DNA from: Cenococcum geophilum
Lineage: Eukaryota
NCBI GenBank assembly: GCA_050273025.1
Contig: CP158635.1
Coordinates: 5,890,001-5,954,000 of the forward strand
Direction of reading: 5' to 3'
DNA: 64,000 nt
The notes under the pieces are model-generated. The model was not told where the DNA came from. It ran no database searches and was given only the letters and a program-made list of their open reading frames with translations. Below are positions 14,901 through 43,961 of the stretch, one piece after another; positions within the stretch are counted from its first letter, which is position 1, and every line of letters begins with the position of its first letter. Position numbers and translations under genes: made by a program.

Positions 14901-17900
14901 CCTAACCTGGTACCCTGCGTAGAACTTTATAGGCTGCCCTTAGAAGCTTAAAGAATTCTATAACTAATACCCTAATGCGCCTAGACCCCTAAAGTACCTA
15001 GACGAATAGATGGAATGCTGGTATAATAAAGACGATAAGTTACCGGAAGAATATAGGGATAAAAACGCCCTAAAGCCCTAATACAGCTGTCTACCAAATT
15101 CTGCCATATTCTGCCGTTTTCTGCTAGTACCGTAAAATTTCAGATGTCTAGGAACTTCGACCGCCGGTTAAAGTTGTCTAATTGGTTAGATCCGTGCCAA
15201 GACTTTTAACGGCTACTCTTTCTGGCCTAGTGCTTCCACTTAGCCCACAATCGCCCTTTGTACTTAGTTAGGACGGACTTGTATCCCTTTTGTCTCCTTA
15301 TCTTATATTTTTATAATCCTACGTTTATAAGCCTAGTACTACCCTATTTTTTCTAACTAAGCCTAAGGGCAGGCTTTCTTTTAAAGAGGGGGGTGATGTA
15401 ACGGCGCTATCGCACGTTACCTGCCAAATTCTGCCATATTCTACCGACCTGTGATTAGCCCGCCTAAAGCTAGCGCCTTAGCGGCTCACCCTATATATTT
15501 GTTTACATTGGTCCTAGCGACCCCTTTTCCTTCTCTTTAGCTTAGTATCTTCGTAATATAGCATTCTATAAGCTTCGGTTCAGAGGCATTTGTACGAGCC
15601 GTGACAGCCACTATAGCTGCGCTTTTATAGTATAGGGAACCTACCCCCCTTAAGTTAATAACCAGGTATATAATTATAATATAACCAAATATAGAATAAG
15701 CAGAGGGGCTTAGGGGATAATTAGAAACAGAAGTCCTTATAGAGATATATAAAGAGGTTTATAACGCTGTTATAGTCTAATACCTTAAGAGCGGAGATAT
15801 TAGAGTTACCCTAAAGGACTAATAGGTAAAGAAACGAGCCGTAAGAGTAGGGGATAGGCTAGGAGAACGTATTAGCATAAAAGTACTCCGTAAGAATTAC
15901 CTAGTTAAGGTCCTAGTGGTTCCTATAAGCCTTAGGGTAGAAAAGGGACGCTAGGCGGACAATACAGCAATTATATAGGAGATAGTAAGATAAACGGAAC
16001 GCCTTATACTAGGACTCAAAATCACCCGAATTTAATAGCTTTAATAGGAAAATACAAACTAAGTATATAATAAGAACAATAAGAGGATATAAGGGTCGCT
16101 AGAGACTTACTAGGGAGACGCTAAACGAACGTATGGCTCCCTTATCGTTAGTATATATACACTAGGAATACAAAAACTCCTTATCTAAAAAGGAATAATT
16201 ATAAATGGCCTTATATATAACATAAGGCTCTATAACCATAGACTACGCCTAGAATAATACTATCGCTATATATAATAGGGACACACCTAATCTATATACG
16301 CAGCACAGGTGTGCTGCGGCCACTGTGTAGGCCTCTATGATATAAGATATTGCTTAAATTAAGACTAAATAAAATACGTAAACTGCCACCAAAGTATATA
16401 TAAGGCGTGGGAGAGAGAAGACTGCATTAAATACAGGAGACGGAAGGTAAGGGCTTAATAGCTGCGGGAATAACTGCACGCTAGATTATACGAATGGAAA
16501 CAATAGGCGATAAGCTAGGGGGACGTAGGCGCCTTTCTAGCGTTTCTTACCTTTAATACTAGAGGGCTAGGCCAGCCATCCTAAGCCTTAACGGGCTAGA
16601 AGCGACGCTATGCAACATTACCAGACCGATTAGGGATATAAGGGTCATAGGGGATATAAGGGAGAGGACGCCCCGTAGGAAGACCCCTATAGACAGCGAT
16701 AGTAGGCTTAAGACCAGGACAATTAAGAATTAGACTTAATGCAGTAAATATAATATTTGCAGCCGACCTATAAAGGGTATATAGCCGATTAGTAAGAATA
16801 AGGGAAGAACTGGTAATAATAATAGATTTAAATATAGAAGCGCTAACAGGAACATAAGATATAGGAATAAAAAGCTCTATATAAAATAAGTAGTAACTAA
16901 GGTATAGATATAAGAGATAGAAGCTCTAAATATCCTAAAGAAAGTGGAAACAGAAGAAGTGAGGAATAAAGGAAAGTTAAAGGACCCTTGCTAGGGGTCC
17001 GCTACCTATCTATTATATAGTATAACTGCGGTAACATAAACCACCGCCTTGTAAGGCCCCTACTAGACAGTCTAGACCTAGAGAAATACTATATCCTTGC
17101 TATATAAGAACCGTATTATAATACCTTTATACAATTAATATACTGCCCCTAAGGATTCCAGCTCCTATACGAACCAAAAGCAGCTATACGCGTGTGCTTT
17201 ATAATTAGTAAGGCTATTAGCCTGTCCTTATAGTTATAGCAGGTAGTTAACCTAGATATTGTAGTTATAATAATCTAAATATATAGGGGACCGGTACAAA
17301 TTATTAATATATATAACCCTAGGGTTAAAGGGGTCCTATAAATAGAGAATATTATATTAGTAATAAGCTTACTGGAAACTAAAGGTACAGAGTCTATTTT
17401 ACTAGGAGATATAAACCTCTACTACCTGCGGTAGGGGGGTATCCATATTGCTGTAGATTAATAGTTAGAGTGCCTACTAAGAGCTATAGATATTTGGGGC
17501 CTTAAGCTAGCTACCCCCCTAGGAGCAATTACATAGCAACGAGGTACTGCTAAAAGCATAATCGACCTTATATTTATGGACGAAGGCCTATACTAGAGAC
17601 TTAAAAAGTGCAACCCTAAAGAAGAATGGGCACTTACCCTAGACTATATCCCTATCTAGATATAGCTAGACTTAGATACTAAAGCGTAACTAAATAGAAA
17701 AAGATACGCAATAAGGAAGCTTAAGATAAACAGTTTCCTTAATGTAGTTAAACAATAACTCTAAAACCTAGAAGAAATCCACTTAATACCAAACGAGCGA
17801 GGCTTATTGGCTACCCCTAAGGAAATTAACTAAAGACTAGAAAGGATCTAGGCAGCAATTAAAAATAGGCTAGAAGAGCACTGCCCGATCTTAAAACTAG

Positions 17901-20697
17901 GCCCCTATACGCGATATATATGGTCTATATAATGTGTAGTTCTAGTTACCAGCCAATAATAAGCAAGAAGGAAATATATAAGTAGCTATAACCCTAAAGA
18001 TAAGAGATAATATAAAGACATAAGAAACTAGCTAAAGAATACCCTAAAAAAAGAAGTAAGGAATAACTAGAGACGGTTTATAAATAAGCATACTTCTAAC
18101 CTAAGCCTCCCCTATAATAAGGGCCTTTGGGCTATAGCAAAATGGGTAAAAAAAAAGGTAGGGCGCTTAGTAGAAGACCTATACCTACTACCCCTATAAA
18201 GAGTAGGAGAATTACAGGCTATAAACAACAACGATAAGAAGGCAAAGATCCTTATAGAAAGGTTCTTCCCCTAACTAGCTCTAGCAGACTTTAGTAATAT
18301 TACGGGCAAAACACCGGTGACTTGCCTACGGGTCAACAGCGACATAATAATAGAGGAAATGGCTAGAACTATTAGCCGCCTTTTAAATAATATAGCACTA
18401 GGACCAGATAGGATTCTAAATAAGGCCCTAAAAACCTATAGGCCACTTATAGTACCTTAGCTTGCAGATATAGCTAGAGCATACTTTACTATAGGCTACT
18501 ACCCGCGACTTGGAAGATCTATAACGACAGTTGTCCTATAAAAAAAAGGTAAAGTAGATTACTTAATCCTAGGAAGCTACCGCCCTATTGCCTTAGAAAA
18601 CACCCTTAGCAAGATCTTAGAAAGGGTAATAGCGGAACATATAGTAGACACGGTAGAGGAACACGCCTATATACTATAAAGCCAAATAGGGGCAAGAAAG
18701 AACCGCTTAACACTATCAGTACTTACGCTACTCGCTGCCACTATTAAATCTGCATGGGCGATGCGAAAGGACTTTATAGTATTAATGCTTAGCCTAGACA
18801 TTAGTGGTGCCTACAATAATATACCCCACGAGCGTCTCCTGCATATCCTTAGGGCAAAGGGCTTCCTAAAATAGATTATATAATTTATCTAAGGGTTTAT
18901 AGGCCAGAAAGAAACTTTACTAGTCTTTAGCGGATACCAAAGCCCCCCTATTGCAGTTGCAACAGGAATACTATAAGGATTACCCCTCTCGCCTATACTC
19001 TTCCTTTTCTTTATAAGTAACCTACTTAACTTCTTTAAGAAAGGGGCGACCTAGGGGATAGGCTTTGTTAACGATATAAACCTAATTATATATGGGCCAA
19101 CAGCCGTAGAGAATTGTAGAACACTAGAGAAAGCCTATAACACTTATATAGAATGGGCAAAATGTTATAAAGTCTAATTCTTATTAGAGAAATACCAGCT
19201 AATCTATTTTATAAGAAAACGTAACTAATCTGCAGATCTCTAGTATATAATTCGCATCTAAGGCTTTAGGGGTTAACCAGTTTAGGGCTTAAGGGTATTA
19301 AGAGTATAGGTAGATAGTAAGCTCTGGTAGAGCGTATATGCGGCGTAAGCGGCCCGTAAAGGCTAAGCACAGTTTATTGCTTTATCTAGGATTATTAACT
19401 TTATATAGGGTCTATACTTCTAGAGGTTACGCCTACTATATACAGTAGTCGTCCGGCCAACTATAATATATAGATCTAGTATTTGGGCCATTAGAGAAAC
19501 TAAGAAGGGCCCCCCTAAATTACTTCTTAAACTACTTTAAAAGGTCTAGACTGCCTACCTCTAAAGTATTATAGGTGGGTATAAGCGAACGGCCACAGCA
19601 CTGCTTAAGAAGGAATCTAATATTCCCCCCCTATAGTTATATATTAAAGCCGCTGTAATATAAAGGACGTAAAATAAACGCAACTCTAATATTATAAAGT
19701 ATATTAAGACACGCCTAAGTAAACTATGGAGGGACCCTAGGGTGCCCTATAGGAGAATAAACCAATAACTCTAAAGTAGGGAAGAGATATTAGAGAAACA
19801 GGTAAAGAAAGTAGAAGAAGAATGGTGCCGCTTTAGGGCCTAGGCCTATATAGAGGAGGAAGGGAGACGCGTAAGAGGTTAGTAAAGATAATAGTAAGAC
19901 AAAGAAAGGAGCTAAAGTAGAATATGTAAGAATGCTAGGAAACTATCTACTGTAATGCAATACTGGTTGGACCAACGCTAGAGAGGTAAATGGGAGTTAA
20001 AGGTATAGAGGCTGACTTAGGTAAGATAAACCTAAGCTATAGTATAGTTAACGCTATGGGGGGTAAATACCTAAGGGCTCCGAGAAGGCCTAATAAAGGT
20101 AGAAAATATAATAGCAATACTCTTAAGAACAGGAATAATAGGACTAAAAGATTAGCTTTACTGGGTGGGTGTCCTAGTAGATAGCCTGAGATGTAAATGT
20201 GGCTGGCTAAGACAGACACCAAAACACGTAATACTGCTATGCCCCCTACGCACTAATTAAGAAATAATGCTCTTAGTAGCTGGCATAGAGAACTATAATA
20301 CACTACTCTTAATATAAAAAGGCCTTAAGGCGGTTACCTAGTGGCTTATTAGTTAAAATATGCTAAATCAGTTCCGGGTTATAAGGGAAATGGTAATAGA
20401 AGGTAAGGGGGCGAGCAGTAGGTGCCCCCTAGTAACTCTACAGTAGTAGAGTAATAGTTTATAATACTAGCGCGTCCGTAGGCTTATTACGGCAGCAGTG
20501 GTTCCTAAGGAGGTTAAATAGTAAGGTAGTAGAGCATTATAGGCGACTTATAGGCGCTAAGTAGGCGAGTCCTAAAAGGCGGGGAGATGGATTATAGGGT
20601 TTTCTTATTTTTCTTAAATAGAGTTTTCTCCCTATATATAAATAAGGAGTAGTCTATATAGGCCTAATAGGGATCTAAATCGGACGTTAAGCAATGA

Positions 20698-20723
<26 letters not shown>
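8943..20723 (+). mobile_element. Tad-like LINE copy B, full length, RIPed; ORF1 with CCHC knuckles (~16255-16430), ORF2 endonuclease-RT (~17000-20470)
   Basis: TSD tatatactaa(t/c)aata at 8928-8942 and 20724-20738, and a (TTA)n tail. RT motifs GIL*GLPLSPILFLFLISNL (GIPQGSPLSP) and GFVND (FVDD). The endonuclease start resembles QYNC. Confidence 0.93.
9420..15606 (+). mobile_element. Ty3/Gypsy chromovirus 1, full length, RIPed; LTRs 9420-9629 and 15397-15606; gag ~9860-11020, pol (PR-RT-RH-IN-chromodomain) ~11020-15080
   Basis: 210-bp LTRs with TG..CA ends (5' copy RIPed), TSD gccac at 9415-9419 and 15607-15611, and a PPT before the 3' LTR. YLDDI at ~12585, RNase H motif NYEVYDKEMLAI, and a chromodomain KGYNPD.TWYPA. 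Confidence 0.95.
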
Positions 20724-20729
<6 letters not shown>

Positions 20730-21759
20730 CTAACAATAAGGGAGCTATACGTTTGTTTGGTGTCTCCCTAGCAAGTCTCTAGCAACCCTTATATCCTCTT
20801 ATTATTCTTATTATATACTTAGTTTATATTTTCCTATTAAAGCTATTAGATTTAGGTAATTTTAAGTCCTAGTATAAGGCGTTCCGTTTATCTTACTATC
20901 TTCTATATAATTGCTATATTATCCGCCTAGCGTCCCTTTTTTACCCTAAGGCTTATAGGAACCGCTAGGACTTTAACTAGGTAATCCTTACGAAGTACTT
21001 TTATGCCAATACGTTCTCCTAGCCTATCCCCTACTCTTACGGCTTATTCCTTTATCTATTAGTCCTTTAAGGTAACTCTAATATCTCCGCTCTTAAGGTA
21101 TTAGACTATAATAATGTTGTAAACCTCTTTACGTATCTTTATAAGGACTTCTATTTCTAATTATCCCCTAAGCCCCTCTACTTATTCTATATTTGGTTAT
21201 ATTATAATTATATACCCAGTTATTAACTTAAGGGGGGTAGGTTCCCTATACTATAAAAGCATAACTATAGCGGCCTAGGTGCGGTTTGCTAGTAAAGGGG
21301 AATTATACTTATTTTTAATTTTGCTTAGCCGTTAGAGGATTTAATTAAGGGTTTGCTAAAGGGGCGCCTAAGGTTTACTAGACTAGCGGAGCCATTCTAC
21401 TAGCTATATTAGTTTGTTATAGCTAACAGTTACTCCCCCGCAATTCTAAATACTAAACACGTTTAATAGGCTTTATATTTTATTAGATACCTTCTTAATA
21501 GAGGTATTTCCACTTTGTGGTGTAGTATTCGCCCGTCTTTGTTGTAAAGGGCTATTACTGGGCGTAGTTCTAGCGGTCGCGCGCGAGTGCGAGCCACCGT
21601 TGTTTGACGTGTGCCTTCCCTGCGATGCATGCATCTTAGGGGGATTCTCTAGGTGTTTTTCAGGGTTCTTTTGGTTGGTTTTGGTCTTTTTAGGCCAGGT
21701 GCAGCAAGAGCTCCTTCAAACTTAGGTGGGTAGGTTTACCTCCGTATATATAAATATAG

Positions 21760-23103
21760 CTAAGGCCACCGCAAAGAACTTATTAAGGCCCTACCTAGAG
21801 AACTCGTTAAGGCCCCTCTATAAGGGCCTATCTGGTATCCAGTACAATCAGATGACTTAGAAGAGGGTCTTAATAGGCGTGGTGCGCGCGACCTGGGGGA
21901 CGGCGACGCGACGGCGCTGCGATGGCGACGCGACGGCGACCAGACGGCCTAACGAGGTGGAAACACGGGCAAAGCTCTAGGCAGGGAAACACAGGCCAGC
22001 TTCGACGGCCCCATGGCGTTTAACTCACAGTTGACTTACAGGCAACTCACAGGAGGGTCTTAATAGGCGTGGTGCACGTAACCTAATGCGTATATGCATA
22101 AGGCGACTCACAGGAGGGTCTTAATAGGCGTGGTGTACGCAACCCAATATATATATATGGGGGAGGCTATAAGGGAAACACAGGCCAGTTAGATAAGGAC
22201 TCGATAGTTAGAGACATAGGCTAGCTTATAAAAGGGGGGGACACAAGCTTAGTTAGTAGGAGAGGGGAGAGTAGGTTGTCTGGTGTGGGACCTAGTGTCT
22301 CTATAGCCCCTCTCCTATAAGACACGATCGGCCTATTATAGGGAGACCCTTACAGGCAACGCGAAACGGGAGCTGGTAGTATATAGGGTATTACGCCCCT
22401 ATATTACTACTAGCCTCCTATAAGGCATAGTGCGTAGTAGCTACTGCTAGCTCTAGGGACCTTACCCCTTAGCTAGGCTTTGACCCCTGGTGCACCTAGT
22501 ATATAGGTAGGATTACATCCTGGCCGGAGAAGACTGCTATGTGGCTTAAGAGAACGGATGCGCGTATTGGTATATTAATAGACGGAACCGCTCGCCTCTA
22601 GGGCGGCTCGCCGGTAAGATATGCTTAAGGAGCAAACAGGAGTTACTTAGGCAGGGGAGGCTTTTTTTAGTTTGGGCCTTAACTGCAGAAGGTACCTAAG
22701 GCTTCCATATTGCAGGATGCAGCCACGATGCCCTTATAGGATTACGCCAGTAGGTACGTAAGAAGGGAGTTATAACCCCTAAAAACGGCAGCTTATGCCT
22801 ATGCTGGCGGAAATAATAAAGAAAGGCGTAAAACTAGAGGCTATAGAAGGCTCCTAAGCCGTGCAAAAGCGTATTAACTTTAGGAGGAGACTCTTATATA
22901 GACCGCTGGGGGGCGGTCTAGTACTTAGGCTAATCCCATTATAAGATACCCAAAAGAATAGTGAAATTCCCCATTAATTGGTAGTGGTAGCTAACTGCTT
23001 ATGGAAAGCCCTAGGCCCTTAGGCTTGGTAAGGGAAAGCTACTTAAAAACTAAGGTAGAGGCCTAGATAAGCAGATATGTTAAACTCTACTATATAACTA
23101 CCT
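21760..23103 (+). other. 1.34-kb non-LINE, hairpin-rich segment forming the 5' part of retro-insertion C; candidate rDNA IGS/5'ETS copy
   Basis: It lies inside TSD atatataaatatag (21746-21759 and 30760-30773). It has three copies of agggtcttaataggcgtggtg and several stem-loops, and ends in TACCT just before LINE homology starts. The identity is an inference. Confidence 0.55.
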
Positions 23104-24303
23104 ACCAATCTATAAATCTCTAGTATGCAATTTATATTTAAGGCTTTAGGGGTTAACCAGTTTAAGGCCTAAGGGTATTAGGAGTATAGGTAGACAATAA
23201 GCTTTAGTGGAGCGTATATGCGGTATAAGCGGCCCGTAAGGGCCAAGTACAGTACATCGCAATATCTAGGATCGTCAATTTTATATAGGGTCCATGCTTC
23301 TAAAGGTCACGCCTACTATACATAGCAGTTGTCCGGCCAACCATAACGTATAGATCTAGTATTTGGGCTATAGGAGAAACCAAAAAGGCTCCCCTAAATC
23401 ACTCCTTAAACTACTTTAAAAGGTCTAAATAGCTTGCTTTTAAAGTATAATAGGCGGGTATAAGCGAACGGCCACAGCACTGCTTAAGAAGGAAGCTAAT
23501 ATCCCCCCCCTATAATTATATATTAAAGCCGCTGCAATATAAAGGGTGCAAAGAGAGCGTAACTCTAATATTATAAAGTATATTAAGACACGCCTAAACA
23601 AACTATGGAGTAACCCTAGGGTGCCCTATAGGAGAGCAAACTAACAACCCTAAAGTAGGGAAGAGATATTAGAGAAATAGGTAGAGAAAGTAAAAGAAGA
23701 ATAGTGCCGCGCTAGGGCCCAGGCCTATATAGAGGAGGAAGGGAGACGCGTAAGAGACTAGTAAAGACAATAGTAAGAAAGAGAAAGGAGCTAAAGTAGA
23801 GCATAAAAGAGTACTAGGAAACTATCTACCGTAATATAATATTGGTTAGACCAATACTGGAGAGGTATATAGGAATTAAAGGTACAGAGGCTGTCGCAAA
23901 TAAGAGGAACCTAAGCCGTAGTATAGTTAACGCTATAGGGGGTAAACACCTAGGGGCTCTAAGAAGGCCTAATAAAGGTAAAAAATATAATAGCAACACT
24001 CCTAAGAACAGAAATAATAGGACTAAAATATTGGCTCTACTAGGTGGGTGTTCTAGTAGGTAGCCTAAGATGCGAATATAGTTGGCTAAGATAGACACTA
24101 AAACACGTAATACTATTATGCCCCCTACGCACTAACTAAGAAGTAATGCTCTTAGTAGCTAGTATAGAGAACTATAATATACTACTCTTAATATAAAAAG
24201 GTCTTAAGGCGGTTACCCAGTGGCTTATTAACTAAAATGTACTAGACCAGTTCCGGGTTATAAAGGAAATAGTAATAAAAGGCAAAGGGGCGAGTAGTAG
24301 GTA

Positions 24304-27300
24304 TGTTAGCGACTCAGTTAATCGAGACATAAGTACGGCAAAAGGGTCGCGCAAGCCTGTACGATTGGATTGTCTATAAACGAGAATCTAAAGCTAAAGA
24401 AAGGAAAGGAGAAGAAGGGGAGCGCCGCTCGAAGCTATATACGATCTTCACGTCACATAACCGCAATATGCGGCAATCTGTGGCAACTTGCCAGTGCGTA
24501 GTTCTGCTAAGTTCTGCCAGTGCTATAACATTACCCCCCCCTCTAAAAAAGCCTGCCCTTAGGCTTTGCCGCTAAAAGTCTTAGTAAGAGAATCTAACCA
24601 ATTAGACAACTTTAACCGCTGGTTAAAGTTCCTGGACATCTTAACACCTTACGTAACTAAAAAATTTCTAGGGTATTTTTGTTCTTATATTCTTCTAGTA
24701 GCTTATTATCTTCGTTATGCTAGCATTCTATCCACTTATCTAGGTACTTTAGCGGTTTAGGTTTATTAGGGTAACGGCTATAAAACTCCTAAAGCTTATA
24801 GGGGCTACCTATAAAGTTCTATATAGGGTACTAAGTGGGGTCTAGGTTATATCCTTTCTAACTAATATAATACTTTAACGTTCCCTTTACAAGTTTATAG
24901 GCCAGTATTTCTTTAATTTCCTATTTATTATTATCGTTAACTTAAATTAGCAGGGGAGGTTTATTCTTTTATCCGGGTAGTAGGTTATTTACAGCTTTCT
25001 ATAACTTATCCGGTAAGAAGATAGGGTAGACTTTAATTAAGTCTAAGAGCTTAACCTTATACAAGTTACCTACTTTATTAAAAATCTTATACGGTCCTGC
25101 TATCTTATAGTCCAGCTTATAGCTAGGCCGTTCTATCTTTTAGTTCTTTATTATAACCTAGACCATATCACCTATAGTAAAGTTAAGCTCGCGCCTATAC
25201 TTATTTACCTACTATTTTATTAATTTCTAGGCCTTTTTTAAGTTTATATAGGCTACTTTCTAGGCTTCTTCTAAGCGCTTAGCGTACTACTAGGCTTCCT
25301 TATAAGATAGTTTTTCACATACAGTTTAGGGCCCTTTTGGTCTTTCCCAGTCAAAGCTTATATAGGGTAGGTAACCCATTTCTAGTTAAATAGGGGCAAA
25401 TCCGGTAGAGTTATAGGGTAAGGTCGCTTAGGCATAGTCTATTAAGGGTAATAGTTTGGCCTAGTTATTTTAAAAGTAGTTAACAAAAGGCCGGAGCCTT
25501 TAGTTTAAGTATTAATTCACAATCTCCGTTTAACCGTTTATCTGGGGGTAATATACTATAAAAAGCTTTAGCTTAATACCTAGGATCTAGGTAAACTTAT
25601 TCTAAAAGGCTAATATAAACTGCGGCCTATAGTTAGATATAATAGTGTCTAGTAGTCCGTAAATTCGGTAGACGTAGTAAATATATAGTTAGGCTGCCTC
25701 TTTAGCATTAATATTTTTATAATAGGGGATTAAGAACGGGCGCTTGCTAAAGCAGTTAACTAGGATTATAACTATATTATATCCGTTATAGTCTAGAGGT
25801 AGCTTATAAAAGTCTATAGAGATATATTACTAGGGGCGGTTAGGTATTAGGAGGGGTTTTAATAGTCCTAGGGTCTTATCTCGTGGGATTATAGACCTAC
25901 AGCAGTTGTTATAGTTCCGTACATAGCGGTTGATATTTATAACTATTCCGGGCCAGTAGTAGCGGTCGCCAATAATCCTATAGGTCTTATTCTTTTTAGG
26001 GTAGGCCGTAGAGACCTAGGTATATGCTTTAGCAATAAGCTAAGTCCATAAGTTCTGTTCCTTTGCCACTACTAGCCATTTTTAATACTTAAGTAATCTA
26101 TTTTTAAGGGACCATAGGCTAGTAACGTTCTTTGCCTTTTTACGGTACTCCTATAGAGAAGGGGCCGTACGGTTTATTTGCAGTAATTCGTTAATTAAGT
26201 TAAGTCCTAAAGGGTTAATAGGATATATCTTGGCGCCTAAGGAGTCTATATTTAGTTCTGCCTATATCTAAGGGTTAAGGTGCTCTAGTTATAGTAGCGT
26301 CTAGGTCTATAATAAGATCTTCACAGCCGTATAGTTACCTAGGTCTTATTCGCGCCTAGTAAGAGTATCCGCACGGTTCGTAGCGCCTAGTCTATATATA
26401 ATTAAGAAGTTAAACTAAGATAGGATATCCGCCTAGCGTGCCTACCGGGCTATAAGGGCCTTAGTTGTTATAAAGTATTCTAAGGCCTTATAATCTAATA
26501 CTACTTTAATGGGTTTAGGGGTCCCCTCTAGCTAGGCACGCCAGTGCTAAAAGCTAGAGATAATAGCTAGCATTTCTTTATCATGGATATAGTAGTTTAG
26601 TTTAGCATCTATTATAGTATTTAAATAGTATGCTACAGGGTGCCATTCTCCGTCCAGTTACTTCTGGGAAAAAATACTAGTTATCGCGCTATTTAAGGCA
26701 TTAGTTTCTAGTATTAAGGGCCGTTCTAGGTTAAAGTGGGTAAGTAGGGGGGCTAATACTAGCCGTTTTTTAAGCTTATTAAAGGCCTGTATATATATAG
26801 CGTTAAAGTAAAAGGGCTGGTTTTTTCTAGTAAGGCGGTTAAGAGGCCAGGCGATTCTGCTATAGTTCTTAATAAAGCGTTAATAGAAGTTACAGAAACC
26901 TAAAAATAATTATACCCCTTTTACGGTCCGTAGGGGCGTCTACTAATTAATTATGGTCGTTTTCTTTAGGTCGGCCTTAATTCCGTCCATGCTGATAATA
27001 AAACCTAGGTACTTTATACGCTTAATACTGAATTCCGACTTCTTAATATTGGCCTAGAGGCCAGCTTCGCGGAGCCGTTATAGGACTTTATAGACGTGCT
27101 CCTCGTGTTTCAGTTTATTCTCTAAGTAAATTATAATATTATCTAGATAGGCCGTATAGAAGTCATTAAGGTAGTTAAAGAGTACATTGTTTATATACCG
27201 CTGGTATATAGCTAGTCCATTAGTTAGTCTAAAAGGGAGTACCTTATATTTATACGTCCCGTAACGGGTCTAGAATATAGTAAGATCCTTAGACCCGGGG

Positions 27301-30283
27301 TCTATCCTAATTCAGTAAAAGGCCTGGCGGATATTAAGCTTTATAAAAACCTTAGCTTTACTTATTTAGGTAAGAGTCTTATTAAGTAAGGGCAGCGGGT
27401 AGCGGTCCTTGCGGGTTATATTATTTAGCTTATAGTAGTTAATATAAAAGCGCAGTCCTCTATTTAGCTTTTTAATAAAGAGAATAGGTAAGTTAAAAGG
27501 GGCTTAGCTAGGCTCGATAAAGCCCTTATTTAGGTTATTAATAAGGTACTACTTTATGGCCTATAATTCGGCAATAGACTGTAGGTAGAGAGGGCTAAAG
27601 CTAAGGGTACTTCCCTTATCTTGCTTAATCTCGATCTTATAATTATATAGTTAGTAGGGTAGAAGCATATTAAACGCTGCCTTAGAGAATATGTCCTTAA
27701 ATTTCCGGTATCGATCGGGCAGTTTTTACTCCACTAGTTCTTTATCCGTAAGCCCGCTTTCCTATCTACTAAGCTTACTTTCCTTTTCCTTAATTATTTA
27801 GTTAATTTTGTATAGGCTAGTTATAAAGGCAATGGTATTAGGCTAAACTAGGTTCTAGTAGAATCCTATAGCTCTAATATAGTAGATATTAACTAGTGGG
27901 AGGTCCGTAGGTTTCTTTGGCGTCCGTTAGGCCGTGGTTTACAGTATAGGGTTTATAGTCTTCCTTAGCTTACGTTCCATTTTCCATAAGTTATCCTTCC
28001 TATCTATTAGTTTAGTGTGGCGTCTAATATCCCTAACTTTCCTTTATAGCTTTATAGGGTTCTCCATAGGGAACTTAGCTAGGTTATTACCGACTTCCTA
28101 GGTCTCTAGTGCGGGTGGCGTAATATAGGTAGTCTAAGGGCGGCGTAGTATACGGATCCGTTGCGGGTTAAGCTATATGTCCTTCTTAAAGGCCTAGTCT
28201 TTGCGCATAGCATTGGCCTAGTAAATAGTATTAATCTAGGGCCGTATAAGGTTTTCTATTATAATACTAATTTCTTTTATAAAGGAAGGGGTTAGGGGTA
28301 GAGTTTTAGGCTAGATAAGCCGTCTACTCCGTACTTTAAGCTGTAAGCCTAAATAGGCTAGCTATTTTTTTCCTAAGATTATATTATAGCTTCCTAAGTC
28401 CGTAATAAGAAAGGGGATGTTATACTACCTTTGTCCGTTAACGCGGAGGTAGATCCGCAAGATAGTTATAATAGGTAGCCCTATCCGTCCGTTATAACCG
28501 CGAATAGGGATTGGTTTAGGTAGTTTTTTAAAAGGTACATTTAAAAAATTAGCTAGTTTTACAGCACACTTTATATTAATTAAGGTAAAGGCATTTACTC
28601 CTAAGTTAGCTAAAGTAGAGGTTAAAACTTAATATCTATTGCAAAATAAAGTATAAGGGATAGTGTAGCTTCTTCTACTAACTAGCCGACCTAGATTAAT
28701 ATATAATATATTAATTCCTTTTAACCCTAAAGAGGAGTCTTCCTCTAAGGTTCCTCTTTTTCTAGCTCCATATTATTCTCCTAAATTAATAGGACCTTAT
28801 TTGTCCTTACCTTTATTAGGTAGTTCCTTATAGGGTAGCCTATTTAACCGCACGAGAAGCAAGCTCCTTAATCGCTAAGGGCCTATATATAGGGGTCGCT
28901 ATATATAGGCCGGGTGTACACTAGGCCCGCAGTAGGGGTAGCTGCGCGGCTAGCTATTAGGTTGGCTATAGGAGTTGCCAATTATACTAGGGCACTATAG
29001 GCCGTACTTACAGTACTTACGGCCTGGTTTATAAGGTTTCTAGTTTTTAGCTAATTAGCGCGTACCTTAATTTAACGGAGGCCTTAGTTAATAGCTAGGT
29101 AATAGTCCATAAGTTCCTTTAACGTTTATACCGTAGTATAAGCTAGTAATATAGCCCGCTATAGGTCTAGGGTAAGCTTGTTAAAGAGGTCTAGTAGTAG
29201 GTCTTCCTAGGGGATCTAGGCCTATCCGGCTAGGTATAGGAAGCGGGTTTAAAAGGCTAAAAAGGTCTCCGTTATTTTTATGTTTAGGCTTTTATAGCTA
29301 AGGCGGGCGTTTTATACTTTAAAAGGGTCTTTATAAATAGAAGATAAGTATTTAATTATTTCTTCTTTAGAGATAAAGGGGTCTGCTAAGTCTTTAGTGT
29401 ATTACGGGCGTAAATACATCTAAGCGTCTCCGCCAGTACGGCTAAAGATATAGGCCATTCTAGCTTAGGCGTTAGGGAAGTGGTCTATATTAACTTTAAG
29501 CTTATCCCATAATTAAAGCTTCCAATTATTAAATATAGGGTCGGTTCCGTCTATAAGTAGTAGAGGGTCCGTAACCTTTACTAACCGCTTTAGTACTATA
29601 TAGGCCTTAGTAAATCCACTAAGGCACTAAAATAGGGCCTAAAGGACTATAGTAAGTCTTTAGTTGTTTAATAATGACTTATTATTAGATATAGGGGTAT
29701 CTCTAGCTTTAAGTAGCTCTCGCAATTATTTAATTTCAGTATTAGCAGCCGTAAGCTCCGCCTAGGGGGTTAAAACGTTAATTATTTCTTCGTCTAAAGT
29801 ATTTAAGGGTCCTGCAGCTGCTTTACCCGCTACTATAGTTTATAGCATAGTAGTAGGGGTGTTAGGTAATTCTAGGTAATTTCTTTAGGGGTTTTAGTCT
29901 GTGTGTGTCTTATAGGTCCTTTCCTTAGGGTTCTATTCTTTACTTTTAGGTCCTGTCCTTATGGTCCTAGTAATATCCTTAGGGTCCTATTCTATATTCT
30001 CGTAGATATATTTAAGTTTCTTCTTAGGAAGAAAAAGTAGAGTGAGCTTTAGATAATGTTAGCGACTTAGTCAATTAAGACATAAGTACGGCAAAAGGGT
30101 CGCGCAAGCCTATACAATTGGATTGTCTATAAACGAGAATCTAAAGCTAAAGAAAGAAAAGGAGAAGAAGGGGAGCGCCGCTTAAAGCTATATACGATCT
30201 TCGCGTCACGTGACCGCAATATACGGCAATCTGTGGCAACTTGCCGGTGCGTAGTTCTGCCAAGTTCTGCCAGTGCCGTAATA
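24304..30283 (-). mobile_element. Ty3/Gypsy chromovirus 2, full length, RIPed; LTRs 24304-24530 and 30057-30283
   Basis: 227-bp LTRs, TSD aggta/aggtg (one RIP-type change), and a PPT at 24531-24545 on the minus strand. RT (AYLDNI), RNase H, integrase and chromodomain relics on the minus strand resemble element 1 pol. Confidence 0.95.
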
Positions 30284-30515
30284 AGGTGCCCCCTAATAAC
30301 TCTACAGTAGCAGAGTTAAGTTTGCGATACTAGCGCGTCCGTAGGCTTATTACGGCAGTAGTGGTTCCCAAGGAGGTTAAAAAGTAAGGTAGTAGAGCAC
30401 TATAGGTGACTCGTAGGCGCTAAGTAGGCGAGTCCTAAAAGGCGGGGAGATGGATTACGGGGTTTTCTCATTTTTCTTAAATAGAGTTTTCTCCCCATAT
30501 GTAAATAAGGAGTAG

Positions 30516-30703
30516 TGTTACGGCACTGTTACAGACCCTCGTCAGGGGCTCGTCTGGAGCCTTGGCGCCATGTATATAGACGTGTCCTTTCCTCGACCTT
30601 CTTCTAGTCCTCGTCTTGATATCCTCGTTAATAGACTACCGATCGTACAGGCTTGCGCGTCCCTCGTGTCGTGCTCATGCCTCGATTGACTGAGTCGCTA
30701 ACA
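30516..30703 (+). mobile_element. Solo LTR (188 bp) related to the LTRs of Gypsy 2 and 4
   Basis: TG..CA ends and TSD agtag at 30511-30515 and 30704-30708. The 3' ~80 bp matches the reverse complement of the 24304 and 53593 LTR starts. Confidence 0.92.
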
Positions 30704-30759
30704 AGTAGTTTGTGTGGGCCCAATAGGGATCCGAATCGGATGTTAAGCAATGAATAATA

Positions 30760-31400
30760 ATATATAAATATAGGATTTACTTTTAAGATAGCCTATATCT
30801 TTAATAGCTACTCCTTTTTAATTACGTTTAAAGGTAATATAATAATAGTAATAGAAGCTTAAATTAGTAATAGAATTGCCTATATTATTATACTCTTACC
30901 CTATAATATCTTTACTACTAGGAATAAGTCCCTTTACCTATATATTACCTATCTTAACACCTTAATTTAACTAAGTTATCCGCTGTATAGATATAAAAGC
31001 TTAATAGCTCTATTTATTACGCTTAACTATTTATCCTTACTTGCCTCCTATAAGGCTAAAAGCTTATCTTATATATCCTATAACTACCTCTTTACTAAGA
31101 ACGTAAGATCTTCCTATATATAATTATCTAGCTCCTATAAGCTTTATAAGGCCTACTAGCGTTCCTATTTAACTATAGGCTTCTAACCTTAACGTCTAGT
31201 AGTTTTCTTTAGAGCTATAGTAGGTTTTTTATACGGATATAACGCCTAGCAGTAGTAGAGGTACTCTAGGCTAAGGGAGGATATTTTTAAAAAAGGACCT
31301 AACTATAGCGCCTACTAGGTGTTGTAATAACTTTAAGTAGTAGATATCTATATATCTATATAGTTTTATTAATATTAGTAGACTATTTAATAAGATATAA
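30760..31400 (-). pseudogene. RecQ-like helicase relic, N-terminal part (motifs 0, I, Ia)
   Basis: The minus strand reads LS*IKVL...DLFLVVKIL*GKSIII*AI...IIILPLNVIKKE* (de-RIP AKTSWGKS; VLPLNAIEKEQ). It ends PIFIY, which joins IFIYTEV at 21736-21759 and continues into the 2900-4373 fragment. Confidence 0.8.
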
Positions 31401-31411
31401 TATATACTTAG

Positions 31412-31661
31412 TGTCACGGGACTTACACGTTCTCACGTCCCTGCGCGTTTTAACGTTCTTGACCCGTGCTCACGTTCGTCCCGAGACACCTACGCACGTT
31501 CCCCTACAACCCCTATTTATACCCGTACCTGGTATACGAAGATTCTTCTTCTTTATCTAAATGTCTTTGTATCAACCACGTATAGTTACGCGTACGTAGC
31601 CTTCTTCAATTACTACCCTGTTTAGTACATTGTATTCCAGCTCGTGCCCAATTCCGTAACA
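31412..31661. mobile_element. Solo LTR (250 bp)
   Basis: Termini tgtcacgg...ccgtaaca. TSD cttag at 31407-31411 and 31662-31666. Confidence 0.9.
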
Positions 31662-31882
31662 CTTAGGCTTTTAATAACGCGTTTTTTAACTTTAATAAAA
31701 TTAATATTAGGACTAAGCAATAGCCATATTATAAAATTTATACTATTTAGAAGCCCTAAGTCTTAAAAATAATATATAGACTTTTAGTAATAATATCGCG
31801 TTATATAAATAAATAAATTAGATATCCGTAATCTCCGTTTTACGGATTTTGCTTAGGATTTTAATAAAACTCGCCAAACCCT

Positions 31883-31921
31883 CTTAGACGTGATTTTGCA
31901 AGCTAAAAAATCGCGTCTGAG
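31883..31921. repeat. Inverted repeat/hairpin at the presumed end of the helicase element
   Basis: cttagacgtgatttt ... aaaatcgcgtctgag (15-bp arms, two C>T differences). Confidence 0.75.
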
Positions 31922-31946
31922 CTCGCTGAGGTAAATAGAATGCTAT

Positions 31947-32083
31947 CCATTGCAACGTCAGGGTCCTCAGAGTAAGTCCGTGCGGGAATACCACTATATT
32001 TCTGAGTATGGGCACCGAATTCAGCTAATCTAATTGGTTAGTTCTTATCGATAACCTGACGACCCATTTTGACGTTGCAAGGG
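31947..32083. mobile_element. 137-bp MITE with piggyBac-like ends CC(A/C)TTGCAACGTCA, flanked by CTAT/ATAG
   Basis: 14-bp TIR with one mismatch, plus an inner gggtc/gaccc match. Confidence 0.7.
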
Positions 32084-32442
32084 ATAGAGACAAAAAGCTC
32101 TTTTTTAATAAACTTTTCGTAAGAGAACATGCTTCCCCAGCGCCGGTATTTGCGCCCGCTGAATAGCTCCAGGGAGACTTATAAAATACATAGGAGTGAG
32201 ACATTGCGTTAATTGTACAGACACATACTCCTAAATTGTATCTGAAGCCTCAAAATTTGCCAGCGAATTAAAAGAACCGTTGGAGATAAAAGTAAGAAAA
32301 TAAAGAGTTAATTGAGCGCTCCGGAGCGCTGCTCTGCATTTCGTGTAGAGAGACTGACTGATACTCGCATAACCAACCAACGAAGGCATGGTGGAACTAG
32401 AATTACATTCATCAGACAATTGGGGAATCACAGACTCTTAAA

Positions 32443-33550
32443 CTAGAAGTGGCATGGGTCGCCAGCACTGTGTATTAGCAACGAAACACGGAGAGCGAAG
32501 ACAACGGCAGCAACTCCAGCAATACCCGCAACCCCGCTTCTAAACCCAAAGACCCTACGCCCAAATGTTTCCAAGCTCAACGGCTTCAGAGCAGTAGCAT
32601 CACTCGTGACGTGTGACGCGACAGCCGAGATCAAGCCACCAAGACCACCATGGGAAGCCGAAGCAGTCGATGTACCCGTGGTCGTCGCCGAATAAGTTGC
32701 TGATCCGGTGGTCATGGAAGCTGAGCCAGAGGCTGTTGCACCTGAAAAAGTCGCAGCTCCTAGTCCGGTGGGTGTGGGCTGTCCGAGCTATTGAGAAAGT
32801 TTTGTCAGTGCCAGTCCCAAAGAATTCTGGCAATCCGCCTACCTTGTCTGCTGAAAGAGCTGCAGCAACATTGGTGGCTGCACCAACGCAGTCCATATTC
32901 TGGGTACCAATCTGGTTCTGCTGACAGCAGAAGTAAGTGTGTTCTGGGTCATGTGAGGTAGCATTCCAGAGAACCCAGGTGCTGTCAGCGCATGTCGACC
33001 TGAATCAGGTTATCTTATCACCGACTCAGCTACCTCCCATTGACTCAGTCATTGACTCGGTCACCTACCCCTTGTTTCCATTGCCACCCCCCTACCCCCT
33101 TCTCGTTCTCATTTCCTACACCTTTCCTATGTATATATAGAGGCTCTTAGAGCCACATTCAATAGACAGAGTCACCATTCTCTTCTTACAATCGGTGCAC
33201 GGACTACCGATCGACAGCGCAGAATGGAGTTGTTTACAGCGCCGCAAGGCAGCTTCCGCCTGTTCTTTATCAACTTAATGCGAAGTAGGTCGATTGTGGA
33301 TATCCTTACCATCAACGCAGCATATGCGGGCTCCAGGGCCAGTGCCGTCTTCTTGGGTCATGCCGTTAGGACAGTGTATGTAAAGGTTGACATCGCTCAT
33401 TTGTGTTGTTCCACCAGGGCAATTACCCGAGGTCATGAGACCCCACCCTCCTCCCTCATACGCATAGCGGCGCTCAACTGGAACTACAGGAACGAATGGA
33501 ATGAATGCGCTTGCAGCAGCGGCGAGGGAAGCAACAATCAGAGGGAGCAT
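32443..33550 (-). pseudogene. Secreted Cys-rich, Ser/Thr-rich, probably GPI-anchored cell-surface protein; 3 exons (33550-33310, 33259-32843, 32787-32443); disrupted by a TAA at 33234-33236 and a solo LTR
   Basis: Signal-peptide-like MLPLIVASLAAAASA. GT-AG introns at 33260-33309 and 32788-32842 keep the frame. Removing the LTR restores PFCADSTWVLWN..YFCC. A S/T stalk and hydrophobic C-terminus follow. Confidence 0.85.
32993..33216. mobile_element. Solo LTR (224 bp) inserted in exon 2 of the cell-surface gene
   Basis: tgtcga...tcgaca termini. TSD gcgca at 32988-32992 and 33217-33221. TATA-like tatatata inside. Confidence 0.92.
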
Positions 33551-34084
33551 CTTTTGAAAACGAGAGAGAGATAGCAAAGGGAAATATAATTAGAGAGCGG
33601 ATTTGGAAGATTAAGATGAAAAATAAGTAATGGACAAGCTGAAAGCTGCTCTCCCCATTTAAAGGAGTCACTGATAATATATGTACCGCACGTTCGACAT
33701 CTCCCTCAAACCCTCAACAGGGATGGAACAGAACATATGATAATGCTAGAGGCTATGGTATAAGAGCGTTGGGGAAATACGAGAGCTGAATCGTCGAGAA
33801 TCCAATAGATTCGATCTCTTCCGAGCGCTGTCTGACTTTTCCTAGCAGTTGAAGTGGTGTGTGGAGGTTGTCGAAGTTGTGGAGATTAGGTTGGTTTCTG
33901 GCACGCAGCCGACACAGCACATCCGAAGGGTATGTGGATGCGAGGCGCAGTCTAGAGAGTCGCCTAGCTGAAAAGACCCTTTTTTTTCAAGCCAAAGCAA
34001 TCAACAGGCCCGGCCTCTGATAAGAATTGTATGGTCGAGCTTATTCAGGCTTAAGCTTCTCTTAAGAAAGCTTGTCCTGTAACA

Positions 34085-34174
34085 TACACCATCTCGTCAA
34101 TTCCGGCGGTTAGCGCAGCCACGTCTGCACGGCCCTTTTTTAGGGGAAGTTTTGGGAATTGACGAGATGGTGTA
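34085..34174. mobile_element. 90-bp MITE-like element (TA-flanked, Tc1/mariner-type ends)
   Basis: Perfect 20-bp inverted repeat tacaccatctcgtcaattcc / ggaattgacgagatggtgta, including the terminal TA. Confidence 0.75.
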
Positions 34175-35677
34175 GGTAATAAGGTTATAACGGCGTGCAG
34201 GCTTTGCACCCGAAGTTCCAAACCGTCATAACCCCATCACCCCGTCACGTCGGCTGAACCAAGACCAAAGGCGCAGCAGGGAATGGCTTGACTTATGACG
34301 ATCTTTTTAATAAAAAGAGCTTCGCTTAGAGTTGTCCAACAATTTCATTCACCGCACAGAGAGCGCCGTCTGACACTCTTACTAAACGCACCGAAATATG
34401 GTAGTCAAACAGATGTATACACGATTACTTTATTAGTAAATAAAGTAAATATCTCTAGGACTAAACTTTTCATACCCCCATTCGGATACCCCTGACCTAG
34501 ACATCCCCTGAGAACCCTCCGTCACGTACATATGCCCATCATAAACTTCCTTCTACTCAGCTTCCAGAAATCTGGAGAATTCTGAATCACTCTCCCCAGC
34601 GTAAAACTGGTATCCTCGGACAATGATTAAACTCTATCAATATTGTCCTCGAACCGCACAGTCTCCTGAAAGCACTTTCTAAGTTGGCAGACCTCCCCCC
34701 CCAAGCCGGTTTTAAGTCAACATTGAAAAGCAAAATGTTCACGAGGCCGCGGCTTTAGACAGAAGTCCGCCAACTTATAAAGATTTGACTCTATTTGCTT
34801 GAATTAATCCAAACTCTTCATTTGACTTTCCAGGTGCTTAACACTAGTCGGGAGAATATATATCGTAGCCCGTATTCGGGCTTGCTAATCAATCAATTCA
34901 ATTCAATTAAGGCCCCAAATTAATTAAATTAAAAGCTGTATAAGTAGAAGGTTTAGTTAATTAAATTAATTAACTTAATATTAAAACTATAACTAACTAT
35001 AACTAATTATAATAGAATTATAAGAGAATGTAAGGCATACTGCTAGGTGTACGGTAGGGAGCAGGCAAGCCGAGCATAAGTTACAAGGAGAGTCGATGGA
35101 AGAGGACGATATGGTAATGAGGGTAGGCAATAGCCTAAGTACAGAGAGAGACGAACCGATAAGGAGGGAAAGGGCTGTAAGCCCAAGGGAGCTTATCCCT
35201 TTGTGTGGCAACCGTTTCTTACAATATTCGTATATACACGCCTCCCAAGCTAATCTAAAGGCTCTATACTGTATATAGCTTGGTGTTAAAGCCTTAGTTA
35301 GTGCAACTGCTCGGCGGTAGGGGTATAGGCGCTACCTCCGAATTTCGGAATCTTGAATATTGCGGTAAGTAGCAGCGACATGGTTAGAAAGCCTATATAT
35401 AGAATAGTGGTGTAGTTAATTAAAGAGCTTCAATATTATTGTTACCTATTTAATTCTTAAAGTCTCAGCAAAATATTATCCTTATGCCTAGAAAACATCA
35501 GGAAATTTTTTTTGGGGCTCGTTGTTGCGGTTTGCGGCAGGTAGATATGGTCGATAGCAATTTGCGTAAAACGCACGTTTTATAACAAAATTGCAGCACC
35601 TAATAGCAAATTGCGGCAAAATGCTACCCCTATAAATAAATTAATGCAAAACGCTACCCTATAAATAAATAGCGCGC

Positions 35678-36135: not shown

Positions 36136-36270
36136 CTATCTATCCGTCCGTCTATACCTACCCGTCTATACCTACCTGTCTATGCCTACCTGTCTATATT
36201 ACCTTGATTCGATCGATCGATTAAATTGTTTATCGTGTTCGCTGGCTGGTCGTTCGAACGGTTGTCGTGT

Positions 36271-36900
36271 GGCTCTGGCGACGGTCATGTGGCGATGACG
36301 ACGGTCGTCTAGCTCTAGCGACGGTCATCTGGCTCCGGCGACGGTCATCCAGCTCTAACGACGGTCGTCCAGCTCTGACGACGGTTGTCCAGCTCTGGCG
36401 ACGGTTATCTGGCTCCGGCGACGGTTGTCCAGCTCTAACGACGGTCGTCCAGCTCTGGCGACGGTTATCTGGCTCCGGTGACGGTCGTTTAGCTCTGACG
36501 ACGGTTGTCTAGCTCTAACAACGGTCGTCTGGCTCTAACGGTCGTCTAGCTCTAGCGACGGTTATCTGGCTCCAGCGACGGTCGTCTAGCTCTGACGACG
36601 GTCGTCTAGCTCTAGCGACGGTTATCTAGCTCCGGCGACGGTTGTCTAGCTCTAACAACGGTTGTCTAGCTCTAACGACGGTTATTTGGCTCTAACGGTC
36701 GTCTAGCTCTAGCGACGGTCATCTGGCTCCGGTGACGGTCGTCCAGCTCTAATAACGGTCGTCCAGCTCTGGCGACGGTCATCTGGCTCTGGCGACGGTC
36801 GTCTAGCTCTGACGACGGTTGTCTAGCTCTAACGGTTATCTAGCTCTAGCGACGGTTGTCTAGCTCCGGCGACGGTCGTCTAGCTCTAGCGACGGTCGTC
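36271..36900. repeat. 20-bp minisatellite acggtcgtccagctctggcg, ~32 units, some 17-bp variants
   Basis: Three units per 60-nt line at 36301-36540; no unique spacers. Confidence 0.95.
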
Positions 36901-37069
36901 TGCTAGCTGTCGTTCTGGTGTCTTCCTAGGTAGGGAGGATATAAGGAAGGGTAAAAAATAAGGTGGCTACCTAGGTGTATATAGGGGGTATACTTGGCAG
37001 AGGTACGTATAGAGGCTATCGGGAATATAGCGGGGACCTAATAGTAGTGTATCGCGCGCATACATAAAG

Positions 37070-37368
37070 GTTTTATATAAAGCTTTATATAGAGCCTTTA
37101 TATATAGAGCTTCGCGCAGAGCCTTATATAGAGCTTTGTATAGAGCTTTATATAGAGCTTTGTATAGAGCTTCGTATAGAGCCCTATATAGAGCCTTATA
37201 TAAAGCCTCTATATATAAAGCTTTATATAAAGCCTTATATAGAGCCTCGTATAAAGCTTTATATAGAGCTTCGCGTAGAGCTTTATATAGAGCTTTGTAT
37301 AGAGCTTTATATAGAGCTTTATATAAAGCCTTGTACAGAGCTTTATATAGAGCCTCGTACAAAGCCTC
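37070..37368. repeat. 12-bp minisatellite agagctttatat, ~25 units
   Basis: Direct periodicity; it generates the KALY/RALY ORF artefacts. Confidence 0.95.
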
Positions 37369-37370
37369 TG

Positions 37371-43602: not shown

Positions 43603-43961
43603 TGTCACGGGACACCCCCGTGACACCTTATACACGTCCACCTGTTTCCACCGACTCAGCAACTAGAGACTGACCACGAGACGGCAATTTGCGGCAATCT
43701 GACGGCAATCTGCCATATTCTGCCATATTCTGCCAAGTTCCACCGAATCCTGCCAAGTTCTGCCAGGACCACCACCTGAATCCTATTCTGCTCCGTGCAC
43801 GTGTTGACCAAGCAACCAAGCTAACGATATATACCCTTTCTTCCCGTTTCCCTGCCTTCTCTCCTTACGCAACGTCTTGACCTTATCACACAGTTCATGT
43901 ATATAGCTTAATAGTATCTACTTTGCTACATATTATCACCGCTTATACTTACTCCGTGACA
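43603..43961. mobile_element. Solo LTR (359 bp) inserted in the protease region of Gypsy 3
   Basis: tgtcacgg...ccgtgaca termini. TSD aggat at 43598-43602 and 43962-43966. Absent from the sister copy (~58260). Confidence 0.93.

Follow-up and report, generated by a model that had tools for sequence, protein, structure and literature searches.

Chimeric insertions made by the reverse transcriptase (RT) of long interspersed nuclear elements (LINEs) are well documented in mammals, where, in U6-L1 retro-pseudogenes, the enzyme abandons its own RNA and moves onto the 3′ end of the U6 small nuclear RNA. The other RNA then ends up 5′ of a truncated LINE within one target-site duplication (TSD). The same arrangement is present in the stretch analyzed here, 64,000 nt of contig CP158635.1 of Cenococcum geophilum (hereafter, the window), in which a non-coding sequence, designated X, lies 5′ of a LINE 3′ end within one 14-bp TSD at 21746-30773. 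While U6 is a functional RNA polymerase III transcript of ~107 nt with single-copy-type genes, X measures 1.86 kb, has no Rfam family and is known only from retro-copies.

A closer counterpart exists in the fungus that causes rice blast, Magnaporthe grisea/oryzae. The sections of the MINE report on which we draw (PMC2104539) describe a 1.1-kb non-coding RNA, WEIRD, fused to a 5′-truncated MGL LINE of 230-5461 nt. MINE elements have TSDs of 10-20 bp, one tripartite element being flanked by a 14-bp TSD, and 28 junction sites are given for 33 elements, six of them shared. According to the same sections, the switch-site consensus is GCC*A/U (Table 3), and neither micro-homology nor a solo WEIRD was found (PMC2104539). 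They also treat the partnership of short interspersed nuclear elements (SINEs) with LINEs by 3′-end mimicry, for example between Mg-SINE and MGL (PMC2104539). Our results support assigning the X-LINE composite to the MINE/WEIRD kind, as a second fungal case after the rice blast fungus; this likeness is structural, WEIRD and MGL having been compared by description only. No other fungal example besides Magnaporthe was found in the full-text literature searched, which leaves most subscription journals outside it and is no proof that none is in print.

Anatomy of the composite insert

The 14-bp repeat ATATATAAATATAG brackets one retro-insertion. It occurs exactly twice in the window (two or more matches in 1 of 100 dinucleotide-preserving shuffles; mean 0.05), and its right copy directly follows the tail of the LINE, in agreement with the first-pass annotation of the window, which had delimited an insertion by 21746-21759 and 30760-30773 and had it end in this tail. 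Together with two further copies of the same LINE to its left, LINE A and LINE B, the insert can be resolved into the following parts.

21746-21759 (+): left TSD copy, ATATATAAATATAG; 2 nt at its start are shared with LINE B's right TSD copy (21736-21747)
21760-23103 (+): 5′-truncated X copy, ~494-1860 of ~1865 family positions, ending at the family 3′ terminus ...TATATAACTACCT
23104-23106 (+): junction triplet ACC; base 1 from the X 3′ end, CC common to the LINE switch site
23107-24303 (+): LINE 3′ part, piece 1; ~4085-5285 of the LINE's 5573 positions
24304-30283 (+): nested long terminal repeat (LTR) retrotransposon with 227-bp LTRs (left from 24304; right 30057-30283)
24299-24303 and 30284-30288: 5-bp TSD of this LTR retrotransposon, AGGTA/AGGTG
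30284-30515 (+): LINE 3′ part, piece 2; corresponds to LINE A 20420-20653
30516-30703 (−): nested solo LTR (TGTTA...TAACA), an inverted copy of the same LTR family as the 24304-30283 element
30511-30515 and 30704-30708: 5-bp TSD of the solo LTR, AGTAG
30704-30759 (+): LINE 3′ part, piece 3, with the tail ...gttaagcaatgaataata
30760-30773 (+): right TSD copy, ATATATAAATATAG, directly after the LINE tail

BLAST of the insert against the window agreed with the annotated start of LINE homology at 23104 and with the lack of a match between 21760-23103 and the LINE copies of the window. Positions 23104-24302 aligned to 19224-20423 (86.3% identity) and to 5861-4662 (86.0%); homology resumed at 30284-30516 (20420-20653) and at 30704-30758 (20648-20702). 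The three LINE pieces (23107-24303, 30284-30515 and 30704-30759) together align to LINE A 19224-20702, co-oriented and through to the tail. For 21760-23103, no match was found elsewhere in the window besides its own internal repeats, i.e., three monomers of ~40-56 bp at 21854, 22040 and 22101. Later nested insertions make up ~6.2 kb of the 9-kb insert, and what is left without them is 1.35 kb of X and ~1.49 kb of LINE 3′ end. The window contains no second duplication, either at the internal junction 23103/23107 or around X alone. At 23104 the junction base is A where the family has G, a TpG>TpA change of the type left by repeat-induced point mutation (RIP).

The partner of X is a non-LTR retrotransposon: RT and an apurinic-type (APE) endonuclease share a frame, the 3′ end has a tail, and the TSDs vary. 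Scanning with Pfam identified, in one frame at 16148-20714 within LINE A, an RVT_1 domain (E 4.4e-18); Exo_endo_phos_2 was matched weakly (E 0.001), below the Pfam cut-off (19.3 versus 27.4 bits). The tail is of the form (ATT)n/(TAA)n, and the TSDs of the LINE copies are 12 bp long. The nested LTR element at 24304-30283 had no Pfam match in its three plus frames, the minus frames not being scanned.

The X family, its partners and its junctions

A scan of metagenomes with a 20-nt X motif yielded at least 122 loci carrying X, on which all junction counts are based; in the first such scan, a 44-nt RIP-degenerate pattern adjoining the junction had returned no matches. The loci were drawn not from the assembly of the window organism but from a few metagenomes in which a close relative of it is evidently present, and all counts of copies and ends given below are among the loci listed. 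These comprise 75 X 3′ ends, 73 of them with at least 100 nt of downstream sequence and 68 after removal of identical junctions.

X is a ~1.86-kb non-coding repeat family with fixed 5′ and 3′ ends, multi-copy and not a unique capture, so that the first-pass view of the segment as foreign sequence gives way to that of an established family, 5′-truncated in the window. In ~50 copies, two of which are duplicate loci, full-length X starts at the same point, GCCCGCGAAGCCC..., after unrelated flanks, as fits a discrete RNA. Upstream of this start, the copy coverage drops from ~100 to 2-8 and no conserved sequence is seen. We rule out position 21760, where BLAST matches begin, as the true X 5′ end, as almost all copies continue upstream, by ~490 bp. 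The 3′ end is equally sharp: all 75 listed ends finish at ...AACTACCT, RIP-type variants and subfamily inserts included, and then diverge. The terminus reads ...AAACTCTACTATATAACTACCT followed by G/A and CC, with divergence beyond, and the window junction ...TATATAACTACCT|ACC is this same terminus. In none of the listed loci does X have an A-rich or (ATT)n tail of its own.

Across subfamilies, the last ~55 nt of X (AAAACTGGGGTAGAGGCCTAGATAAGCAGGCATGTTAAACTCTAC...) hardly vary in 33 copies (the alignment covers window 22994-23106 and 32 loci), unlike the rest of the X copies, which are riddled with transitions. A stem of 7+4 bp is predicted in this 3′ end; since its pairs never vary, there is no covariation, which speaks neither for nor against the fold. 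Some X 3′ subfamilies have inserted ...TATTACTAGCTAATATATAACTACCT variants.

Consistent with a non-coding nature, the window copy of X gave no Pfam match, and the least degraded copy (GC 0.55) contains no open frame of more than 114 amino acids (aa) on the sense strand. At a permissive threshold, Rfam returned no family in 20700-31200, apart from one sub-threshold microRNA match inside the LTR element, and none in the three loci with the least degraded X copies. Between 20 and 60% of the sampled words of X were present in public runs of two organisms and of root and soil metagenomes. Contigs of three runs, aligned to 20700-31000, cover the whole of X at a summed depth of ~1/5 of that of the LINE and run upstream of 21760 with one consensus. 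In run X1, the contig differences amounted to 151 A>G, 155 C>T, 140 G>A and 124 T>C, with at most 9 in each transversion class, an excess of transitions that is a RIP-like signature. RNA-seq reads of a related organism (run X21) mapped to 21732-22419 with the first mate mostly on the minus strand, suggesting sense X transcripts. These reads are confined to the monomer region, and their flanks are consistently unlike the window, with loose ends at 22099 (28 reads) and 22185 (35 reads), which argues that some X-related monomer is transcribed in another context.

Almost half of the distinct 3′ ends (32/68) continue, within 1-42 nt, into the same LINE in the same orientation, at LINE positions from 32 to 5102 of which at least 28 are distinct. 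Another 11 of the 68 continue into X itself, again in the same orientation, to form head-to-tail arrays of 5′-truncated units (e.g., L008, L078 and L033). The remaining 25 had no match in the small partner library and resolve into two further families, with nine members each, and seven singletons; among these 25 partners, 42 of 44 pairwise matches are co-oriented. No antisense partner was found at any of the 68 ends, and all 43 classified partners are co-oriented with X. Partner family 2, which ends in ...GGCGGTAAATTGAAT(TTA)n, represents a second LINE, with RVT_1 and Exo_endo_phos_2 domains in L042; partner family 3 ends in an A-rich tail. Downstream of X in one locus of the latter (L054), the Pfam scan detected only a Ty3 gag ~3.4 kb away, which probably belongs to another element.

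Loci with X and the second LINE: L002, L004, L017, L018, L025, L028, L042, L055, L064
Loci with X and the A-tailed family: L006, L015, L020, L022, L048, L054, L057, L065, L076

Mapping the LINE junctions of the X copies was the check proposed for the template-switch reading, and their variability points to repeated switches. Judged from the sequences at hand, most X junctions are independent rather than copies of one amplified chimera. The earlier proposal that the LINE mobilizes a non-self sequence, possibly as a chimeric family, is thus supported, but not in the sense of a single chimera that was amplified. Shared junctions are confined to two pairs, L001/L039 at LINE 5102 (with different TSDs) and L074/L079 at LINE 2023.

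To locate TSDs, direct repeats were sought between the flank of each X start and the downstream sequence for 56 X starts. In ~20 of these, whole chains lie between duplications of 12-18 bp, the right copy of which immediately follows a LINE-type tail, and X was never seen by itself within a TSD. In other words, and at variance with an X segment that has an LTR or TSD of its own, the duplications lie only around whole chains (terminal inverted repeats were not searched for). The following loci illustrate the range.

L047: X + LINE 4273-5564; TSD 17 bp
L073: X + LINE 1861-5569; TSD 14 bp
L053: 5′-truncated X (from 751) + LINE; TSD 14 bp
L070: 5′-truncated X (from 467) + LINE; TSD 16 bp
L010: 5′-truncated X (from 511); 9-nt repeat only
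L078, 2504-7553: X + X (1454-) + X (777-) + X (1479-) + LINE 4237-5567; one 16-bp TSD, ATATTCTTCCTTATTA

The five-part chain of L078 inside one TSD implies four template switches in one event.

The switch sites themselves follow a pattern. We compared 33 junctions, i.e., those of the 32 X-LINE loci and of the window, with the majority sequence of 2-29 uninterrupted LINE copies each. After ...ACCT, the chimeras read GCC in 14 of 33 cases and ACC in 8. At the aligned place, the LINE has CC at positions 2-3 in 18 of the 33, compared with 5.8% at 28 upstream dinucleotide places (binomial p ~3e-14), and two pyrimidines there in 28 of the 33, compared with a background of 22.8%; G at position 1 was found once only. 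Because the LINE thus offers CC but rarely G, the junction G can be traced to X (...ACCUGCC-3′), and CC occurs in both templates, either of which may supply it. At the junction, this CC may reflect base-pairing between the complementary DNA (cDNA) and the 3′ end of X, or a site at which the enzyme pauses. The window fits this NCC pattern, with ACCT-A-CC-AATCT as against AAC(T)AATCT in the LINE copies. At its other end, the X of the window starts just after GGCC, and the same point (X 492-494) is the site of X-to-X junctions in L004, L044 and L048.

Origin of the insert and its surroundings

Very probably, the composite arose in one event of target-primed reverse transcription (TPRT), in which the RT left the LINE RNA at an NCC site and went on at the 3′ end of the X RNA. 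What is observed comprises the anatomy of the insert with its duplication, the fact that X reaches its canonical 3′ end at the junction, and the pattern across the family; the enzymatic steps would have followed one another in this order. The LINE endonuclease would have nicked an AT-rich site, ...CCGTAT|ATATATAA, and the RT would have copied ~1.49 kb of LINE RNA starting at the tail. At NCC (LINE ~4085) it would have left this template for a second, non-coding RNA, X, resuming at the 3′ terminus of the latter (...ACCUGCC-3′) and copying it back to ~494, just 3′ of another GGCC, before stopping. Joining of the cDNA to the target would then have produced the 14-bp duplication. Subsequently, the LINE part would have received the LTR retrotransposon and the solo LTR, and the insert as a whole would have decayed through RIP-like C>T/G>A mutation.

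The window insert could instead be the retro-copy of a transcript that was chimeric already, derived from a MINE-like X-LINE master that is transcribed from the X 5′ end and recognized via the LINE 3′ end, so that no fresh switch occurred here. Such a master would combine a promoter with a LINE 3′ end; the single fixed start nucleotide of X fits a promoter of its own, and the junctions shared by L001/L039 (5102, with different TSDs) and by L074/L079 (2023) are what copies of a master would look like. We nevertheless consider this origin unlikely: the 32 junctions use at least 28 distinct LINE positions, none of them the ~4085 of the window, and shared positions can be hot spots, as argued for Magnaporthe in the sections of the MINE report drawn on here (PMC2104539). 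In addition, the X 5′ end is missing from the window copy, which for this reason is itself no candidate master.

Two separate insertions, with a 5′-truncated LINE landing exactly at the 3′ end of a resident X or the reverse, and with the 14-bp repeat belonging to one of them, appear highly improbable. It is true that the region is a dense nest of transposable elements, with four other nested insertions within 26 kb, that this LINE family starts TPRT at TA-rich sites, and that LINE B used the same TAT|ATA site on the other strand. Random nesting, however, predicts partners in both orientations, while all 43 classified ones are co-oriented and begin 1-42 nt from the X terminus. A second duplication is found neither at 23103/23107 nor flanking X by itself; the TSDs embrace entire chains, and X has no tail able to prime TPRT. 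Least credible of all is an identity of X as solo LTR or DNA-transposon end, with the 14-bp repeat matching by chance in AT-rich DNA. Although many X copies can be read as TG...CA (TGCCCGCG... ...CCTGCCA) and the 14-mer is AT-rich and of low complexity, no 5-bp TSD was seen around X, the 12-18-bp duplications enclosing X plus its partner, and head-to-tail arrays of 5′-truncated units with a common 3′ terminus (L008, L078, L033) are un-LTR-like. Nor is an internal gag-pol linked to X, given the drop in coverage from ~100 to 2-8 upstream of its start, and chance reached the level of the 14-mer in 1 of 100 shuffles.

Several points weigh against a single TPRT event with a template switch at this locus. 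No empty site was seen in the sequences at hand. The window junction at ~4085 recurs in none of the 32 other X-LINE junctions and could equally copy an unsampled chimeric master. As the left TSD copy adjoins the TSD of LINE B, two TPRT events are required at one site. A credible TSD is missing from 36 of the 56 X starts (33 had no match and ~3 of the 23 positives look spurious), many chains exceeding the fetched DNA. Every sampled LINE copy is degraded, the longest open frame being 118 aa, and no active enzyme was seen. RNA support for X is weak, with 210 reads, 201 of them only partly aligned, under another organism label. Finally, the loci were chosen by an X motif and thus show the behavior of X, not how frequently the LINE forms chimeras with other RNAs.

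The surroundings of the insert bear on the site at which a one-step, template-switched insertion would have taken place. To its left lie the two other LINE copies, one inside the other.

20727-21735 (−): 5′ ~1 kb of LINE B (remainder: 4371-8942)
4359-4370 and 21736-21747: LINE B TSD, TTACCTCCGTAT; two or more matches in 0 of 100 shuffles
8943-20726 (+): LINE A, full length, inside LINE B; TSD ATACTAATAATA (8931-8942) / ATACTAACAATA (20727-20738)
9420-15602: LTR retrotransposon splitting LINE A, inserted later than LINE A

In the self-comparison of the window, 20727-21735 recurs inverted at 8943-9423 plus 15607-16157. Reverse-complemented and joined to LINE A, this sequence aligns in one piece to L037 (LINE 32-5375), L068 (50-5329) and L052 (169-5567), which identifies it as the 5′ kb of the same ~5.57-kb LINE. 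A palindromic, fold-back or hairpin element, or inverted repeat, made of the LINE A and LINE B flanks is thereby ruled out: the "H" repeat is the LINE 5′ kb, and LINE A lies in opposite orientation inside LINE B. The first-pass annotation had described the insertion as splitting a helicase gene. This gene could not be recovered, as neither side has a Pfam helicase and the left flank is an antisense LINE 5′ end; indeed, no helicase or any other Pfam family was found in 20700-21760, 30760-35500 or 1-4370 in six frames (stop codons read as the letter X, E ≤ 0.01), although in the other flanks a domain could be masked by heavy RIP. When the flanks were aligned locally with tolerance for RIP, scores did not rise above background (z 1-3). 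Other full-length copies of the LINE, i.e., LINE A, L037, L068 and L052, contain neither X nor the 14-mer. There is no intact copy among the sampled LINEs, all of them degraded, and LINE activity thus appears to be historical.

The ancestral site can be written as ...cacttttattacctccgtat·atataaatatag·gatttactttt.... One and the same TAT|ATA step marks the start of two independent LINE-type insertions, LINE B (−) and the X-LINE composite (+), which adjoin by their 5′ ends and point away from each other; their duplications of 12 and 14 bp overlap by 2 nt within 21736-21759. TSDs of other chains likewise begin with ATA/TAT, which suggests a preferred nick site of the endonuclease.

Elsewhere in the window, 48000-52600 forms a GC-rich island (0.54-0.58) within the AT-rich nest. 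It contains an open frame of 329 aa at 49091-50080 and another of 807 aa at 50107-52530, in which ~126-bp repeats form a tandem array at 51462-52435; the island looks like a non-degraded gene. Regions 40035-48114 and 54104-59855 form an inverted repeat pair (43961-48104 versus 58267-54106, 86%; 42008-43603 versus 59855-58261, 81%). A repeat of ~440 bp at 40035, 47678 and 54104-54533 probably represents the LTRs of two copies of another retrotransposon. Two short tandem-repeat arrays (36257-36913 and 37060-37369) occupy a GC-richer stretch with low-complexity translations.

X as a possible passenger of LINEs

Set beside the MINE elements as portrayed in the sections used here (PMC2104539), the X-LINE composites share their build. 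In both, the 5′ part is a ~1-2-kb non-coding RNA ending at its own 3′ end, directly fused in the same orientation to a 5′-truncated LINE of variable length (~470-5540 nt here, 230-5461 nt in MINE), and TSDs are of similar size (12-18 versus 10-20 bp). Junction sites are many and few are shared (at least 28 in 32 here, 28 in 33 MINE), multi-part chimeras occur in both, and a solo 5′ partner has been seen in neither. The switch motifs, GCC*A/U and NCC, are related and not identical, the LINE here having G at position 1 just once in 33 cases. In contrast to MINE, in which the source found no micro-homology, the CC of the X 3′ end coincides with a CC of the LINE. WEIRD is 1.1 kb long and described as full length, whereas X measures ~1.86 kb and is often 5′-truncated. 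In place of one tripartite element, X self-concatenates, with up to four X units and a LINE in one TSD (L078), and its partners comprise at least two families of LINEs and, as a third, the A-tailed family. The present sample is also larger, with at least 68 junctions as compared to 33 elements.

The Mg-SINE/MGL pair, as outlined in the same source (PMC2104539), likewise involves a non-autonomous, non-coding sequence spread by LINE enzymes. X differs from it in sharing no 3′ end with the LINE (by eye, without alignment), in having no tail and in always being the upstream member. Without a tail or a LINE-like 3′ end, X cannot prime TPRT and borrows the 3′ end of its partner.

Compared with the chimeras known from mammals and Magnaporthe, the X system is richer: its independent junctions run into the dozens, its partners belong to three families, as many as five units are chained within one duplication, and the enzyme leaves its template by a clear NCC rule. 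The X-LINE set thus constitutes a natural data set on the jumps of LINE RTs between RNAs. For genome annotation, X-LINE composites are liable to be miscalled as novel elements or "foreign" inserts unless the X family is recognized. The set further bears on the nature of WEIRD-like RNAs, which could be parasites specialized for capture or else RNAs of the cell that were picked up accidentally. Tentatively, and as a possibility we would not yet favor, X may be a "5′-hitchhiker" retroposon, that is, a promoter-bearing non-coding RNA that has no TPRT-priming end of its own and whose ~55-nt 3′ module (a predicted stem and a free ...ACCUGCC) evolved for pick-up by LINE RTs stalled at NCC. It would ride on at least three LINE families and chain to itself, and WEIRD would be another member. 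If this were true, X would stand for a general, overlooked class of elements in RIP-bearing fungi rather than for a curiosity of one species.

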